A stretch of 62,788 nt of DNA. Source: Candidatus Uhrbacteria bacterium. GTDB taxonomy: Bacteria; Patescibacteriota; Patescibacteriia; UBA9934; GWF2-40-263. The first letter of the stretch is position 1, and each line of letters begins with the position of its first letter. Shown here piece by piece: positions 4,154-55,472 of the stretch. Below the pieces are notes generated by a model that worked only from the letters and a program-made list of their open reading frames with translations, was not told the DNA's origin and ran no database searches. The translations under genes were made by a program, and so were the position numbers. The DNA is taken from assembly GCA_023246355.1 (NCBI GenBank), contig JAHFIQ010000006.1:1-62788 (forward strand), in the 5' to 3' direction.

Positions 4154-4227
4154 TGGTTCGGGGACTTGGAATCGAACCAAGATTCACAGCTTCAAAGGCT
4201 GCTGTCCTGCCGTTAGACGATCCCCGA
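4154..4227 (-). tRNA. tRNA-Gln (anticodon UUG)
   Basis: Reverse complement TCGGGGATCGTCTAACGGCAGGACAGCAGCCTTTGAAGCTGTGAATCTTGGTTCGATTCCAAGTCCCCGAACCA. Acceptor UCGGGGA/UCCCCGA, anticodon loop CTTTGAA, T-loop TTCGATT, encoded CCA. Confidence 0.9.
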
Positions 4228-4396
4228 GTGTAGTGAGTAAAATCGACAAGCCGTAGGCTTGAGCTCCGGTGCGAGCACACAGGCAGAAGCTTGCTGATGT
4301 CTGTGTGTGAGCACTGGAGCGTACAACCCGGAGGGTTGTCGATTTTCGAACGAAGCGAGAGGGATGCGGCGTTTTCGCCGCCGCCCCGAGTGTAGT
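4222..4396. repeat. tRNA-Gln-linked repeat module bounded by a 13-nt direct repeat that includes the tRNA 5' end
   Basis: CCCCGAGTGTAGT occurs at 4222-4234 (covering tRNA nt 1-6 plus leader) and again at 4384-4396. Between the copies lie an 11-bp stem (aaaatcgacaa 4239-4249 / ttgtcgatttt 4336-4346) around an imperfect long hairpin, the box CGAACGAAGCGA (4347-4358), and a GC hairpin gcggcgttttcgccgc. Confidence 0.7.
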
Positions 4397-4433
4397 TAAA
4401 GCACGGAGATCATAAGCATTCTGGAGTTTTTTT

Positions 4434-5237
4434 TCAAGCCTTCTGAAACTCAATTGCTGATCCGTAGAACATCGACGCGAGATTCGAGATGTTTTCATCT
4501 TGTGTGGTGAAGTAGGTTCTAGCCGATTTCTTTTCAAGCCGATGGCTGATCTCCGGATGTCGCAGCAGGTAATCCTTCAAGGATTTTGCAACGAGATCGC
4601 CCTGGGTGAGGACATTCATAAACCCGGGAACGGCTTTGCGAAAGGGAAGGAAGACCAGAGGGTAATGGGTGCACGCAAGCAGCACTTGTTCGATCATCGG
4701 ATCTTGTGTGAGGAGTTCTTGTACGAATTGGGTGACAAGATGATGACACTCGGCTGTATCCTGTTGTCCCTTCTCGATCATGTCTGTGAGCCCTGGGCAC
4801 GCAACCTGACTCACGACGATTTCTGGATTGAGCTTTTGAAATTCATGGACATACGCCTCAGAGGTTACGGTCGCAGGTGTTGCCAAGATTCCAACACGCC
4901 GGCTGTTTGCGGCCAGATATTCAACCGCTGGTCGAATCACCCCCAGCACGCGTCGGTCAGGAAATTCTCCGGGAAGCACTTCTTGCTGAATCCGTCGCAG
5001 GGCCTGCGATGAGGCCGTGTTGCATGCCAGGATCACCAACGGACAGCCTTTCTCAAATAAAAATCTGACCCCTTCCAATGTGAACTGAAAAATTTCTTCT
5101 TGAGTGCGAATGCCATACGGTGCTCGAGCATTGTCGCCAAGATAGACTGTTGAAATCTCAGGAAGTCGTTCGTGGATCGGTTTCAAGACCGTGAGACCGC
5201 CAAAGCCGGAATCAAAAATACCAAGCATATGACCCAT
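4434..5237 (-). CDS. murI: Glutamate racemase
   Basis: Motifs IFDSGFGGLTV, GDNARAPYG, LACNTAS and ACTHYP. Confidence 0.9.
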   Translation of the reverse strand: MGHMLGIFDSGFGGLTVLKPIHERLPEISTVYLGDNARAPYGIRTQEEIFQFTLEGVRFLFEKGCPLVILACNTASSQALRRIQQEVLPGEFPDRRVLGVIRPAVEYLAANSRRVGILATPATVTSEAYVHEFQKLNPEIVVSQVACPGLTDMIEKGQQDTAECHHLVTQFVQELLTQDPMIEQVLLACTHYPLVFLPFRKAVPGFMNVLTQGDLVAKSLKDYLLRHPEISHRLEKKSARTYFTTQDENISNLASMFYGSAIEFQKA

Positions 5238-5259
5238 AGCTTGGCATGAGCTTTTAGTT

Positions 5260-5772
5260 ATGGCAACATACTCTCGTATGGCAAAACCTACCTGTCTTTT
5301 TCCCGGTCGCTTTCAGCCCTATCACAACGGTCATCATCTTGTGGTGCAAGGCATGACCAAACTGTGTGGCAAAATTATCATTGCGATTGGCAGCTCGGAC
5401 AAATCTCGATCTGCAGAGAACCCCTACAGCGCTCAAGAACGCAAAGAAATGATCCAAGCCGCGCTCCAAGATGAGGATCTTATTCCGATGTTTGATATCA
5501 ATTTTATTTTGCTTCCTGATGTGGCTGACGATGAGTCGTGGACAAAACAAGCCATGGAGCTCGCCGGTCCCATCGATATGGTGTGGACAGGCAATGAGCA
5601 CACAAAAAAATGTTTTGAAGGCAAACTTCCGATCAAAGCCATCAAGGAAGTCCCTGGCATCAGCTCGACGGCCATCCGAGCTCTCGTGAAAACCGGTGGT
5701 GACTGGGGGAGCAAAGTTCCCGACGAAGTGGCTCGGTCCATGCGCGAGATCGGATTGGATCGGCTGAAATAA
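5260..5772 (+). CDS. Nicotinamide-nucleotide adenylyltransferase (archaeal NadM-like cytidylyltransferase fold)
   Basis: Nucleotidyltransferase motif GRFQPYHNGH plus the C-terminal ISSTAIR motif; 170 aa. Confidence 0.65.
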   Translation: MATYSRMAKPTCLFPGRFQPYHNGHHLVVQGMTKLCGKIIIAIGSSDKSRSAENPYSAQERKEMIQAALQDEDLIPMFDINFILLPDVADDESWTKQAMELAGPIDMVWTGNEHTKKCFEGKLPIKAIKEVPGISSTAIRALVKTGGDWGSKVPDEVARSMREIGLDRLK

Positions 5773-5773
5773 C

Positions 5774-6091
5774 ATGCATCGTTTTTCCCGCGCCATGATC
5801 GCTCTCACCCTGTTCGGCTCCATGTGGATGCACGGAGTGCTTCCTGTTGCCGCTGCCTCTCACGACATGATGAACGACATGGGCTCTCCCTCGTGTCTGA
5901 GTCATTGTCTCGCGGCTATTCATGCAGACTCTGCTCACAACGCGACAAGTCCGTCTGTTCTTCGTCTCATGATTCCTGCGAAATCAGATGCCCTTACCTC
6001 ATCCACCTCCTCTGCCTCTTTTCTCTCTTCCACCTTGTCCACCTCTTTTCATGACCCATGGCTCATTCTCACAACGATCAAACGTGAATGA
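5774..6091 (+). CDS. Small secreted His/Met/Cys-rich protein, possibly metal binding
   Basis: Signal-like N-terminus, then SHDMMNDMGSPSCLSHCLAAIHADSAH. It sits at the head of the copper cluster. The C-terminal half is largely encoded by a TCCACCT-type element. Confidence 0.4.
   Translation: MHRFSRAMIALTLFGSMWMHGVLPVAAASHDMMNDMGSPSCLSHCLAAIHADSAHNATSPSVLRLMIPAKSDALTSSTSSASFLSSTLSTSFHDPWLILTTIKRE
5995..6050 (+). repeat. TCCACCT-type tandem element, in frame (encodes TSSTSSASFLSSTLSTSF)
   Basis: acctcatccacctcctctgcctcttttctctcttccaccttgtccacctcttttc. Confidence 0.6.
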
Positions 6092-31152: not shown

Positions 31153-31983
31153 TTATTTAAATGATCCCAGTTTCTTGTATGCGCTAAACTCGCCCTCGCC
31201 ATGAAGCGTGGGGTCAAAGTTGCCATCGTATAGGTCGAATGAATCAGTTTCGTGTACGTAGTGAATGAAGCCAATATCGCCTTGAATGGTTTTTAGAACA
31301 TCGGTTTTATCGATTAGGACGTTTGCGTTCACATCCCACAGCAGAAGTTTTCGGTTGTCGCCTTCGGGACTTACATCGCCAGTGACAAAGGCGATCTTCG
31401 TGTTTTCCCAGTTATGACCCGGACGAGAGCTAACATTTGCTGCGTCAATTGATGCGAGGATATTGCCATCTGTCGTACTTCCCAAGGCAATTTTGGTGTT
31501 TTCCGGATTTACTGCAAAGAATGTCGTGAGGTCCCATTCGTCAACGATGCTTTTCACACAATACTCAGTGCGCGATATTGTGAATTTTTCTTTCTCCATT
31601 TTTGTTCTGTCGAGGTAGAGAATGTTTCGCTGGCATCCATTCGAATTTGGGTCATCAAACGTGTGGACGATCTTTTGCGGCGAAGCTCCGATAAGCGCAA
31701 TGTTTGGGGCTATAAATTCGGGGTAGCGAGGATCATCTGACGGGATCGCATCGACAACCGCGCGGACGTCCCAATTTTTTGGATCATCTAAACTATAATC
31801 GTAATCATTATAAATAAGCTCAGTTTGTCCTTTTTCGTAGGTAACAAGGGAAAGATCGTACAATGATGACGCGGAAAGAACTTTTCCCCGCATGATTTCG
31901 GGATGAAGCACTTGGATGCCAATAATAATCCCGATTCCTGCAATGAAAAGCGCTGTATGCTTAAGGAATACCTGTTTTTCCAT
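31153..31983 (-). CDS. Membrane-anchored hypothetical protein (AT-richer than its surroundings)
   Basis: 276 aa; N-terminal anchor LFIAGIGIIIGIQVL. Confidence 0.5.
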   Translation of the reverse strand: MEKQVFLKHTALFIAGIGIIIGIQVLHPEIMRGKVLSASSLYDLSLVTYEKGQTELIYNDYDYSLDDPKNWDVRAVVDAIPSDDPRYPEFIAPNIALIGASPQKIVHTFDDPNSNGCQRNILYLDRTKMEKEKFTISRTEYCVKSIVDEWDLTTFFAVNPENTKIALGSTTDGNILASIDAANVSSRPGHNWENTKIAFVTGDVSPEGDNRKLLLWDVNANVLIDKTDVLKTIQGDIGFIHYVHETDSFDLYDGNFDPTLHGEGEFSAYKKLGSFK

Positions 31984-32097
31984 ATGTACGAAAGTATATG
32001 ACAGAAAGAGCTATTCCACAATGCAAAAGCCCGGAGTCTTGCGACTTCGGGCTTTTTGCTGGTCACCTCCTGTTCCGGTAATCGGAACAGGTTGTGA

Positions 32098-32171
32098 TGG
32101 TTCCGGGACTTGGATTCGAACCAAGATAAACAGATTCAGAGTCTGTTGTCCTGCCATTAGACGATCCCGGA
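32098..32171 (-). tRNA. tRNA-Gln (anticodon CUG)
   Basis: Reverse complement TCCGGGATCGTCTAATGGCAGGACAACAGACTCTGAATCTGTTTATCTTGGTTCGAATCCAAGTCCCGGAACCA, with anticodon loop CTCTGAA and encoded CCA. Confidence 0.9.
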
Positions 32172-32393
32172 GTGAAGTGAGTGTTCTAAAAAAGTGTCTT
32201 TACACTTTTTTAGAACCGAACGAAGCGACGTGGATCTGGCACCCAGATCCCGGAGTGAGTGAGCGCAGTGACAAGCCCATGGCTTGATCACTGCCGAACG
32301 AACGACGGGAATCTGACCGAGTCGATCTACGACGAGGGCAGATCCCGGAGTGGATCCAAGTGGGTGTTATCTGATCACCCAGATCCCGGAGTT
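32163..32393. repeat. Array of four copies of the 12-mer GATCCCGGAGTG (antisense of tRNA-Gln nt 1-9 plus 3 leader nt) separated by hairpin modules
   Basis: Copies lie at 32163-32174 (within the tRNA), 32246-32257, 32341-32352 and 32382-32393 (11/12 match). Spacers contain AGTGAG, variable hairpins, the box CGAACGAAGCGA (32217-32228) or CGAACGAACGA (32295-32305), and the GGATCTGG-cac-CCAGATCC hairpin. Confidence 0.8.
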
Positions 32394-32428
32394 TTAATTC
32401 GGCAAAAGTATATCGAGATCAAGCCGGA

Positions 32429-32457
32429 TTGACAAGAACGGCCGGATCTGCTATCTT
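32429..32457 (+). promoter_or_regulatory. Putative promoter of the small zinc-finger-like ORF
   Basis: TTGACA-N17-TATCTT. Confidence 0.45.
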
Positions 32458-32511: not shown

Positions 32512-32700
32512 ATGGCCAAGTGCGCGGATCCTCACTGTCGTTTCTCGTCGACCAAGCCCGGCGGCATGGCGAACCACTACCTGCAGAAGCCGCACCACCA
32601 GCCCGGTGCGAAGTTCAAGGACTTCAAGGGTGACAACGCCAACAAGAAGGCCCCCAAGAACGGCGGCAAGAACCAGGGCGGCGAGGCCACGGCCAAGTAG
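32512..32700 (+). CDS. Small basic protein with a C2H2-type zinc-finger spacing and a Lys/Gly-rich tail
   Basis: KCADPHCRFSSTKPGGMANHYLQKPHH fits C-X4-C-X12-H-X5-H. GC3-rich. A terminator hairpin cccgcctgctg...cagcaaggcggg plus a T-run lies downstream. Confidence 0.5.
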   Translation: MAKCADPHCRFSSTKPGGMANHYLQKPHHQPGAKFKDFKGDNANKKAPKNGGKNQGGEATAK

Positions 32701-54916: not shown

Positions 54917-55004
54917 GGAGAGGTCGCATAGTGGCCTAGTGCGCTCGCTTGGAAAGCGAGTATACCGAAAGGTATCCAGGGTTCGAATCCCTGCCTCTCC
55001 GCCA
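54917..55004 (+). tRNA. tRNA-Ser (anticodon GGA)
   Basis: Acceptor GGAGAGG/CCTCTCC, anticodon loop TTGGAAA, long variable arm TACC-GAAA-GGTA, T-arm CAGGG-TTCGAAT-CCCTG, encoded CCA. A hairpin TTCGACTACCGTT...AACGGTAGTCGAA follows. Confidence 0.92.
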
Positions 55005-55109
55005 TTCGACTACCGTTGTATTGTTTAGAACGGTAGTCGAATGCCCTGAGCTTGTCGAAGGGCAGAAGTGGAGATGTAGACAACCGCTCATGGTCGTTGA
55101 CCATTCGTT

Positions 55110-55472
55110 ATGGAGGAAATTTACTACGTCTACATACTTGCATGCGATGATGGAAGCTACTACGTCGGTTCGGCAAACGATGTCTTGCAAAGAGTCGTAC
55201 GTCACAACGCCGGTGAAGGAGCGGGTTGGACGAAGGATCGACGTCCTGTGAAGCTTGTGTATCAGGAAAAACATGAGTCGTTACTATCCGCGAGACAAAG
55301 AGAAGAGCAGATAAAGGGTTGGACACGTCGAAAAAAAAGAAAATTTGATCAGCGGATTTTGGAAAAAAATATAAAGAGTACTTCACCTAGGTATGAAAGT
55401 TATTCTCTACATGGCAATGACTGTCAACGGAATGATTGCTGGCACGGACGACAAGACAAATTGGTTGACTAA
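55110..55472 (+). CDS. GIY-YIG nuclease family protein
   Basis: YYVYILACDDGSYYVGSANDVLQRVVRHN ... REEQIKGW. Confidence 0.75.
   Translation: MEEIYYVYILACDDGSYYVGSANDVLQRVVRHNAGEGAGWTKDRRPVKLVYQEKHESLLSARQREEQIKGWTRRKKRKFDQRILEKNIKSTSPRYESYSLHGNDCQRNDCWHGRQDKLVD

Follow-up and report, generated by a model that had tools for sequence, protein, structure and literature searches.

A 62,788-nucleotide (nt) stretch of DNA from a groundwater Candidatus Uhrbacteria bacterium (Patescibacteria, or candidate phyla radiation, CPR), hereafter called the window, carries on its minus strand a tRNA-Gln(CUG) gene whose 5′ end is repeated several times upstream. The gene occupies positions 32098 to 32171, with its 5′ end at 32171, and includes an encoded CCA; it was identified with ARAGORN and by an Rfam tRNA match of 64.4 bits. 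The 12-mer GATCCCGGAGTG, the antisense of tRNA nt 1 to 9 plus three leader nt, occurs exactly at 32163, 32246 and 32341 and with one mismatch at 32382. The copies start 83, 95 and 41 nt apart and leave spacers of 71, 83 and 29 nt, and the reiteration that a preliminary description of this sequence had reported is thus confirmed at all four positions. A fifth match, with one mismatch, lies at 4219, at the 5′ end of the other tRNA-Gln gene, which reads UUG. All five matches in the window are at tRNA-Gln loci; shuffled sequence gave 0.32 matches on average, and none of 100 shuffles reached five. The array is identical across the contigs of four independent groundwater runs and two ENA assemblies, indicating that it is not an assembly artefact.

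The array consists of three tandem modules of one family, with start-to-start distances of 83, 95 and 41 base pairs (bp) and without an open reading frame (ORF). Read in the sense of the tRNA, a full module comprises a stub of the tRNA gene (the decoy), a complementary arm with which the stub forms hairpin A, a conserved box, hairpin B, a tail, and the regenerated tRNA 5′ end. The stub spans leader position −2 to tRNA nt 6 to 11, and the consensus of the box is GTCG(C)TTCGTTCG. Hairpin B has 13 to 15 bp and a 3- to 4-nt loop, and its sequences are unrelated between modules. The tail, (A/G)CTCACTnCAC, is followed by the regenerated leader and tRNA-Gln 5′ end. This arrangement agrees with the layout given in the preliminary description, which includes a variable perfect hairpin, a box and a second hairpin reaching the next 12-mer.

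The module next to the gene, M1, has the tail ACTCACTTCAC (32172 to 32182), which forms the leader directly 5′ of the true tRNA; the same motif is found before tRNA-Gln(UUG) and in two related loci, L152 and L155. Its hairpin B (32183 to 32216) has 15 perfect bp and a 4-nt loop, is the longest perfect small-loop hairpin of the window, and covaries across modules. The box (32217 to 32229; GTCGCTTCGTTCG in sense, detected as CGAACGAAGCGA at 32217) is identical in L155 and has an exact copy at 4347 to 4358. In hairpin A (32232 to 32250), GGATCTGG-cac-CCAGATCC, which continues into the next 12-mer, decoy copy 1 (32246 to 32257; tRNA nt 1 to 9 and leader −1 to −3) pairs with the module-borne complementary arm. 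M2 comprises a tail, GCTCACT (32258 to 32264), a hairpin B of 13 bp with one bulge (32265 to 32294), a box (32295 to 32306; GTCGTTCGTTCG in sense, CGAACGAACGA at 32295), and a hairpin A (32307 to 32346) in which GGGAUCUG...CAGAUUCCC encloses an inner stem-loop; decoy copy 2 lies at 32341 to 32352. M3 (32353 to 32381) is truncated to a hairpin (GGGUG...CACCC plus GGAUC/GAUCC) without box, hairpin B or tail, and is followed by decoy copy 3 (32382 to 32393), an 11/12 match.

The second tRNA-Gln gene of the window, tRNA-Gln(UUG) (4154 to 4227, minus strand; ARAGORN and Rfam scan), bears a module of the same kind, which the preliminary description had missed. This module (4228 to 4395) is composed of a tail at 4228 to 4238 (ACTCACTACAC), a branched hairpin B at 4239 to 4346, a box at 4347 to 4358, hairpin A at 4359 to 4387, and a decoy at 4384 to 4395. 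The decoy, CTACACTCGGGG, is a 12-nt copy of the leader and 5′ end of its own gene, identical to 4222 to 4233. The box matches that of M1 at 12 of 12 positions, and the tail and layout are also shared.

No ORF fits within the modules. The only Rfam family detected was tRNA, at E ≤ 1 between 31000 and 33500, at E ≤ 5 between 3900 and 4700, and at the gathering score window-wide. Two candidate identities were tried and rejected: the modules are not decayed tRNA copies, as their interiors match the tRNA on neither strand beyond chance, and a hammerhead-like core on the plus strand (GUGAG-stem-CGAAC) is missing the CUGA part and has no Rfam match.

Occupied and empty tRNA-Gln loci

The relatives of its RimK and MurI proteins place the organism in Candidatus Uhrbacteria. 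Gene order around the CUG locus is kept in relatives (Dus, RimK, in places a small protein, tRNA-Gln(CUG), DnaX). The locus is empty in four of them, L001, L004, L006 and L159, where only a short leader (about 14 nt in the first three, longer in L159) separates a TTGTCA...TATAAT promoter from the tRNA. Decoy copy 3 of the window and the single copy of a further relative, L011, align with the +1 of the tRNA at the empty sites, column for column in the case of the window. Because the outermost copy thus aligns with the ancestral +1, about 222 bp appear to have been inserted inside the 5′ end of the tRNA gene, after roughly nt 9, with the 5′ end rebuilt downstream. L011, whose RimK is 81% identical, has one module, orthologous to M2. 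The UUG locus is likewise empty in the closest relatives (L132, L133, L136 and L160), with whose +1 the decoys of the window and of L134 align. No cargo was found at the module site in the relatives examined. The comparison of related genomes that the preliminary description had proposed therefore yielded clean empty sites or a single orthologous module.

Modules were also found at tRNA-Gln genes in four other Uhrbacteria-like genomes, L011, L134, L152 and L155. The last two, which are canonical, were added by a metagenome scan and lie at a UUG locus beside FtsEX and at a CUG locus beside Dus, respectively; L134 has a mini-module with the box but without hairpin B. Module motifs occur nowhere else in the window, nor outside tRNA-Gln in about 1 Mb of fetched loci, and the tRNA-Gly and tRNA-Ser genes of the window have no module. 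A general dispersed repeat was rejected, the footed-hairpin motif being confined to modules in these sequences. When 143 tRNA-Gln sites sharing this 5′ type were compared across many phyla, a decoy with its anti-decoy was present at module loci only. In a control scan of at least 120 loci from many phyla, 3 of the 120 listed had an upstream 8-mer match, about the chance level, and two of the three (L017 and L058) are the GIY-YIG cassettes described below. Duplication of the 5′ end was accordingly rejected as a general trait of this tRNA-Gln type.

The modules sit only on tRNA-Gln alleles starting with TC(C/G)GGGATC. Close relatives without modules carry plain alleles, TCCCGAGTC (CUG) and TCGGGGGTC (UUG), which are 76% and 86% identical, respectively, to the window tRNAs. 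The module hosts L155 and L152 are only 66% (Dus) and 64% (FtsX) identical to the window, whereas the module-less relatives are closer, at 73 to 84%. These alleles and host identities indicate that the distribution is patchy and tracks the tRNA allele rather than the host tree; one assembly, GCA_964359095, has a module at UUG and none at CUG. In its fixed parts, M1 shares 91% identity with the L155 module and 85% with its neighbor M2, and hence did not arise by recent duplication of M2. Similarity is also mosaic, in that the flanks of M1 resemble the UUG module and its hairpin B does not.

Several related loci show further peculiarities around tRNA-Gln. The minus-strand leader of L155 starts, about 35 nt upstream of the decoy, with the box in reverse complement (AAACGAAGCGA) and then a palindrome, GCTCGATCGAGC; this leader start may be an inverted partial module. 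Upstream of tRNA-Gln(UUG) in L140 and L146, contigs from Hainich groundwater, an ORF-less pseudo-5′-half represents a third style of 5′ duplication, laid out as cgcTCGGGGATCGTCT, a 25-nt insert, TGGTAGGACAA, 30 nt and the real tRNA. In L152, a 405-amino-acid (aa) ORF (4701 to 5918, plus strand) that lies upstream of the module-bearing tRNA-Gln(UUG), at a distance of about 1.7 kb, looks reverse transcriptase-like by eye only, and tblastn of this ORF against the window gave no significant match. The tRNA-Gln(CUG) gene of GCA_964359095 (L001, 4897 to 4970) combines a 5′ TCCAGAG with a 3′ CTCGGGA, giving an A4.G69 mismatch in the acceptor stem.

A second type of insertion at tRNA-Gln 5′ ends contains a gene. 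In L017 (a Saccharibacteria metagenome-assembled genome; minus strand, about 328 to 670) and L058 (about 1917 to 2249), a promoter is followed by a tRNA-Gln 5′ stub, a short hairpin arm complementary to the end of that stub, a GIY-YIG ORF and an intact tRNA-Gln. The stubs measure 18 nt with a D-loop insert in L017 and 36 nt, up to the anticodon, in L058. In L024 and L035, a GIY-YIG ORF lies directly upstream of tRNA-Gln. As judged from the sequences, these cassettes match the window modules in layout and not in sequence; the link to other CPR lineages suggests that insertions land repeatedly at tRNA-Gln 5′ ends. The window has a GIY-YIG ORF of its own (UPF0213-like; 55119 to 55337, plus strand) just 3′ of tRNA-Ser(GGA) (54917 to 55004), with 34 to 37% identity to those of L001 and L017. 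Two hairpins, 55003 to 55043 and GCCCTgagcttgtcgaAGGGC, lie between this tRNA-Ser and the ORF. The L058 ORF has an in-frame TGA aligned with a Gly codon of its L024 homologue, which suggests the use of genetic code 25; the record is labelled Gammaproteobacteria.

Hairpin conservation, predicted transcription and decoy masking

Orthologous modules differ in ways that preserve pairing. Between M2 and L011, a C-G pair of hairpin A is replaced by A-U and a C-G pair of hairpin B by U-A, both changes being compensated, and the loops are wholly different. We aligned six B hairpins over their feet and 7 bp; this alignment was built from structure and is hence biased toward it. In the alignment, 93% of cells are paired and 9 of the 10 pairs show double-sided changes, a result matched by none of 500 shuffles, and slid controls reached 33 to 47% pairing. 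This comparison provides evidence that selection acts on the structure of the hairpins. The fold z-scores are −6.7 and −4.9, and none of the loops is a standard stable RNA tetraloop.

A sigma-70-like promoter site, TTGTCA-17-TATACT, is predicted on the minus strand just upstream of the outermost copy of the CUG array (32407 to 32435), and a similar one, TTGAAA-17-TATGAT, directly upstream of the UUG decoy (4409 to 4437); both are conserved in relatives. No promoter or terminator is predicted inside the modules (32172 to 32400). As the only predicted promoter lies upstream of the outermost stub, the array is expected to be cotranscribed with the tRNA as a leader of about 229 nt. RNase P would be expected to cut at the last copy, because this copy alone runs on into a complete tRNA body. 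Of the three options raised in the preliminary description, the locus thus best fits a long, structured leader of the pre-tRNA that contains acceptor-like decoys.

The partition function was used to estimate which copy pairs with the 3′ acceptor strand of the tRNA. At the single-module loci, the true 5′ end had pairing probabilities of 0.97 in L155, 0.92 in L134, 0.88 at the UUG locus of the window and 0.66 in L152, versus 0.00, 0.02, 0.09 and 0.32, respectively, for the decoy. These models support masking of the decoy by hairpin A at single-module loci. Masking is likewise predicted for copies 1 and 2 of the triple array (0.008 and 0.001).

Other features border the transcription unit. The trailer 3′ of the CUG gene (32025 to 32097, minus strand) contains a terminator-like hairpin at 32025 to 32056. 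Directly after the encoded CCA lies a 15-bp hairpin (32063 to 32097), TCACAACCTGTTCCG attac CGGAACAGGAGGTGA, without a U-tract; it is conserved with changes in L159, which carries no module, and may be a 3′ processing element. Farther downstream, between the 3′ flank of the tRNA and dnaX, a 276-aa ORF (31153 to 31983, minus strand) with an N-terminal hydrophobic segment and no Pfam match lies in a stretch of lower GC content. It is missing from L001, L004 and L006 and, by this comparison, is a lineage-specific insertion 3′ of the same tRNA. On the other side, the promoter-like site of the tRNA overlaps that of a divergent 62-aa ORF (32512 to 32700, plus strand), a Cys/His- and Lys/Gly-rich sequence (MAKCADPHCRF...) kept as genes of 56 to 63 aa in L004 and L006. 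The divergent site, TTGACA-17-TATCTT (32429 to 32457), stands back to back with the −35 element of the tRNA (cTTGTCAAt/aTTGACAAg). A Pfam scan of 20 large ORFs of the window identified core genes such as UvrABC, LigA, GatA, DnaG and RpoD. The amidase-family, GatA-like protein is encoded at 48593 to 50050 (plus strand) and preceded by a 101-aa ORF that is possibly GatC; given this protein, tRNA-Gln is probably charged by transamidation.

Proposed origin and spread of the modules

The anatomy of the modules is well supported, as are the reality of the feature, its conservation as a family and its targeting of a tRNA gene. With moderate confidence, we interpret the modules as ORF-less insertion cassettes that are transcribed as a long structured leader, have their decoys masked, and spread by recombination between direct repeats. 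The promoter would stay upstream of the outermost stub, and the array would be read through into the tRNA. Hairpin A would fold first during transcription and hold the decoy off the 3′ acceptor strand of the tRNA. Since tRNA-Gln sequence flanks a module on both sides, homology-dependent copying into tRNA-Gln genes starting with TC(C/G)GGGATC is possible, as are stacking and precise deletion. An empty site could be filled if a module-bearing allele or paralogue served as template for gene conversion or for the repair of a double-strand break, modules could be stacked by unequal exchange between different module alleles, and slippage could delete them scarlessly, restoring the empty site. These events may be initiated by a trans-acting nuclease; the empty tRNA-Gln alleles read TCCGGGATC... 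and TCGGGGATC.... Spread of this kind would fit the heterogeneous array, the patchy distribution and the mosaic similarity.

A number of observations weigh against this interpretation. Direct repeats of 7 to 13 bp are short for RecA-type recombination. Simple homology-driven copying does not explain a hairpin B that is hypervariable yet perfectly paired, and the arms of hairpin B have no template elsewhere in the window. Across hosts that are about 65% identical, the box and arms show about the same degree of conservation as the promoter, a pattern that agrees equally with purifying selection on a function and with recent spread. Neither a copy-number variant nor an excision junction was found in the contigs of the four DNA runs, although contigs hide rare variants, and three metatranscriptomes of the same study contained essentially nothing from this organism. 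Masking also has an exception: at equilibrium, the outermost, weakly masked decoy of the triple array takes the 3′ acceptor strand (0.87 versus 0.08 for the true end). Masking of copy 3 would thus fail unless cotranscriptional folding rescues the tRNA; without such a rescue, the CUG gene would be partly impaired. As tRNA-Gln(UUG) is able to read CAG by wobble, an impaired CUG gene may be tolerable. Finally, in seven of eight modules the strand antisense to the tRNA folds at least as well as the sense strand, as detailed below.

We also put forward, tentatively and as a doubtful proposition, that the modules represent a class of gene-less, structure-defined mobile cassettes that home to the first nucleotides of tRNA-Gln in CPR with the help of a trans-acting nuclease or recombinase. 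Equally tentatively, this enzyme would recognize the hairpins by their tandem G.A feet, possibly in single-stranded DNA (ssDNA) of the lagging-strand template, and the GIY-YIG cassettes of other CPR lineages would be the autonomous counterparts. The gene-less cassettes would rebuild the 5′ end of the tRNA, depend on its promoter, and silence their own decoy through the masking arm that they carry.

With RNA parameters, the plus strand has the lower minimum free energy and z-score in seven of eight modules. On this strand, both hairpins share a foot made of a 2-bp clamp, a tandem G.A loop and 1 bp with a 1-nt bulge, topped by a long variable stem; the tandem G.A loops and G.U clamps of the plus strand correspond to U.C loops and A.C mismatches in sense. 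Such G.U clamps, A.C in sense, occur in hairpin A of M1, the UUG module, L011 and L155 and in hairpin B of L152, and the clamp of hairpin B is swapped from GU/AC in M2 to AC/GU in L011. The plus strand is moreover G-rich, with a positive GC skew, and is probably the lagging-strand template, and conserved feet with a hypervariable stem are the pattern of integron attC sites (PMC5027507). Because the plus strand folds better and the feet are shared, a mechanism based on ssDNA, like that of attC or repetitive extragenic palindromic (REP) sites, is possible. The modules would then be ssDNA-folded sites or miniature elements read on the plus strand, like attC, REP sites with their REP-associated tyrosine transposases (RAYT) or hairpin elements derived from IS200/IS605, and a structure-specific recombinase or an HUH nuclease encoded elsewhere would insert them 3′ of ...GATCCCGGAGTG. 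We consider this unlikely, since no integrase, HUH or transposase gene was found among the 20 large window ORFs or the annotated neighbors in relatives, neither the attC core (GTTRRRY) nor the REP GTAG is present, and the motif, rather than being dispersed, is restricted to tRNA-Gln. Under DNA energy parameters, the two strands differ only slightly, too little to decide the matter, and the U.C/G.A asymmetry is partly forced because tRNA nt 1 and 2 are UC. The joining segments lead to another explanation, in which the modules are a functional structured RNA of the pre-tRNA leader (a cis-regulator of tRNA-Gln maturation, a small RNA that RNase P releases from the leader, or a new small ribozyme or protein-binding motif) kept by selection and not mobile. 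Conserved joiners, here box and tail, between covarying helices are the usual signature of functional RNA. M1 and L155 have identical box and hairpin A arms, whereas identity is about 66% between the hosts (Dus) and 88% between the tRNAs. In the predicted fold of L155, the leader start pairs with the box and encloses hairpin A in a long closing stem, and with GatA encoded, charging by transamidation could plausibly be regulated. The modules are dispensable, however, being missing from most close relatives and from the 120 listed other species of the same 5′ type; their copy number ranges from 0 to 3, M3 is without box and hairpin B, and L134 is without hairpin B. The sense joiners are also pyrimidine-rich, the loops are not stable tetraloops, and Rfam gave no match, so that a selected RNA function is improbable in our estimation.

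The GIY-YIG genes raise the prospect that the modules are decayed or miniaturized relics of homing-endonuclease cassettes that enter the 5′ part of tRNA-Gln, use the tRNA promoter and restore the tRNA; they would now be mobilized by a GIY-YIG enzyme in trans or by nothing. The cassette layout of L017 and L058, the ORFs directly upstream of tRNA-Gln in L024 and L035, and the window ORF beside tRNA-Ser point in this direction, and homing within a cluster of tRNA genes is known for SegB, a GIY-YIG enzyme of T4 (PMC2330249). Yet the modules have no sequence similarity to the cassettes beyond the tRNA stub and no ORF remnant, and the stubs differ in length (6 to 11 versus 18 to 36 nt), which makes a common descent quite unlikely. 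The modules could also have arisen in place, through errors of replication where hairpins form readily (fold-back template switching and tetranucleotide slippage), after which gene conversion would have exchanged them between the two Gln loci; they would be neutral and serve no function. The 3′ arm of hairpin A is an inverted repeat of the stub, M3 is little beyond stub and fold-back, the box resembles (TCGT)n, as in tRNA nt 8 to 11, and the tail resembles (CACT)n, as at the junction of leader and tRNA. Such an origin has little probability in view of the shared architecture and near-identical box and arms in lineages 64 to 66% identical, the compensatory changes that keep the stems, and hairpin B sequences without a local template. 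Two further options of the preliminary description fared poorly. Scars of serial integrase-island integration and excision at the tRNA 5′ end are highly improbable. In their favor, tRNA genes (tDNAs) are known to harbor tandem arrays, the 276-aa ORF 3′ of the tRNA is lineage-specific, and islands that leave a 5′ tDNA fragment exist but are rare (159 versus 3,760 with a 3′ fragment in Islander; PMC4383910). No integrase was seen, however, and inserts of 29 to 83 nt with a common architecture and compensatory stem changes are not random remnants. Relatives have clean empty sites without 5′-side cargo, blastn of the array against phages and plasmids gave no meaningful match, and a viral-contig scan for the tail plus tRNA start gave none. 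We find it very hard to accept, too, that the locus encodes a plus-strand antisense RNA with four sites complementary to the 5′ end of tRNA-Gln. The plus strand does carry four copies of GAUCCCGGAGUG and folds well, slightly better than the sense strand. No promoter-like site precedes it on the plus strand, though, a bidirectional terminator-like hairpin separates the array from upstream transcription, and an antisense RNA would find a poor target in the 5′ acceptor strand, which is base-paired in a mature tRNA.

Comparison with known systems

Almost all integrative elements use the 3′ side of a tRNA gene, since insertion on the 5′ side separates the gene from its promoter. The modules appear to survive at the 5′ side, being small enough to be transcribed through, rebuilding the 5′ end, and carrying an arm that pairs with the decoy. 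If this is true, they would offer a compact natural system for the limits of the structured leader that RNase P and tRNA folding can bear, for how repeated copies of an acceptor strand avoid misfolding of the tRNA, and for the gain, loss and stacking of DNA by very short direct repeats in the small genomes of CPR. The literature searched on miniature transposable elements with inverted repeats (MITEs) upstream of tRNAs, on long hairpin leaders, and on GIY-YIG and tRNA genes in Patescibacteria gave no description of the arrangement.

Like the tyrosine-integrase islands of tRNA genes (PMC4383910), the modules target a tRNA gene, regenerate it, displace a direct-repeat fragment and form tandem arrays. 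Their direct-repeat tDNA stubs measure 7 to 13 nt, and the downstream tRNA is intact. The islands differ in that the fragment of the modules is the first 6 to 11 nt of the tRNA and their inserts are 29 to 160 nt long, with no ORF, integrase or cargo; kilobase-scale cargo is absent from the window spacers (71, 83 and 29 nt) and from the empty relatives. The modules also part the promoter from the tRNA, need to be transcribed through, and have a two-hairpin architecture. In Islander, 159 of 3,919 tDNA islands leave a 5′ fragment, and all carry integrases (PMC4383910); among the Pfam matches of the neighbors and of the 20 large window ORFs, there was no integrase, transposase or reverse transcriptase.

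With attC sites of integrons (PMC5027507), the modules share a kept structure with variable sequence, feet, a slight strand bias, stacking on the promoter side, and a folded form in which an internal loop and a bulged base accompany a variable terminal stem. Unlike attC, they are without IntI, the GTTRRRY core and ORF cassettes, use the tRNA 5′ end as repeated boundary, and occur at tRNA-Gln only. Their feet read GTTCG...CTCAC in sense and not RYYYAAC/GTTRRRY, and no intI gene was found.

The modules resemble REP sequences and bacterial interspersed mosaic elements (BIMEs), BOX elements and MITEs in being small, noncoding, hairpin-forming, modular, and present or absent between close relatives. 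They differ from them in lying at only two loci of the window, both tRNA-Gln, and at tRNA-Gln alone in the fetched loci. Their ends, TGGGTG... and ...CACTTC, are not inverted repeats, and the flanking duplications, at 7, 9, 9, 10, 11 to 13 and 12 nt, have no fixed length. Nor do they correspond to clustered regularly interspaced short palindromic repeats (CRISPR): the repeat has 12 to 17 nt, spacers of 29, 71 and 83 nt share motifs, there is no significant Rfam CRISPR match, and the Pfam scan of 20 large window ORFs showed no cas genes. They are not intrinsic terminators either, as no U-run follows hairpin A or hairpin B and no terminator is predicted between 32172 and 32400.

As with T4 SegB (PMC2330249) and the GIY-YIG cassettes of L017 and L058, a tRNA gene is the target, and the layout is identical to that of L017 and L058, which do contain an ORF. 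Unlike those cassettes, the window modules have no ORF and no sequence in common with them. With a conserved promoter-like site upstream and none inside, the modules may also be compared with extra RNA made together with a tRNA. We found no described case in the literature of a leader with a repeated tRNA 5′ acceptor strand in which each copy is paired to a masking arm. In Escherichia coli, the 3′ external transcribed spacer of leuZ (3′ETS-leuZ) is a structured RNA that is cotranscribed with a tRNA and then processed off. The modules would likewise be extra structured RNA cotranscribed with the tRNA and removed; unlike 3′ETS-leuZ, the module leader holds repeats of the tRNA's own 5′ acceptor strand, each with a masking arm.

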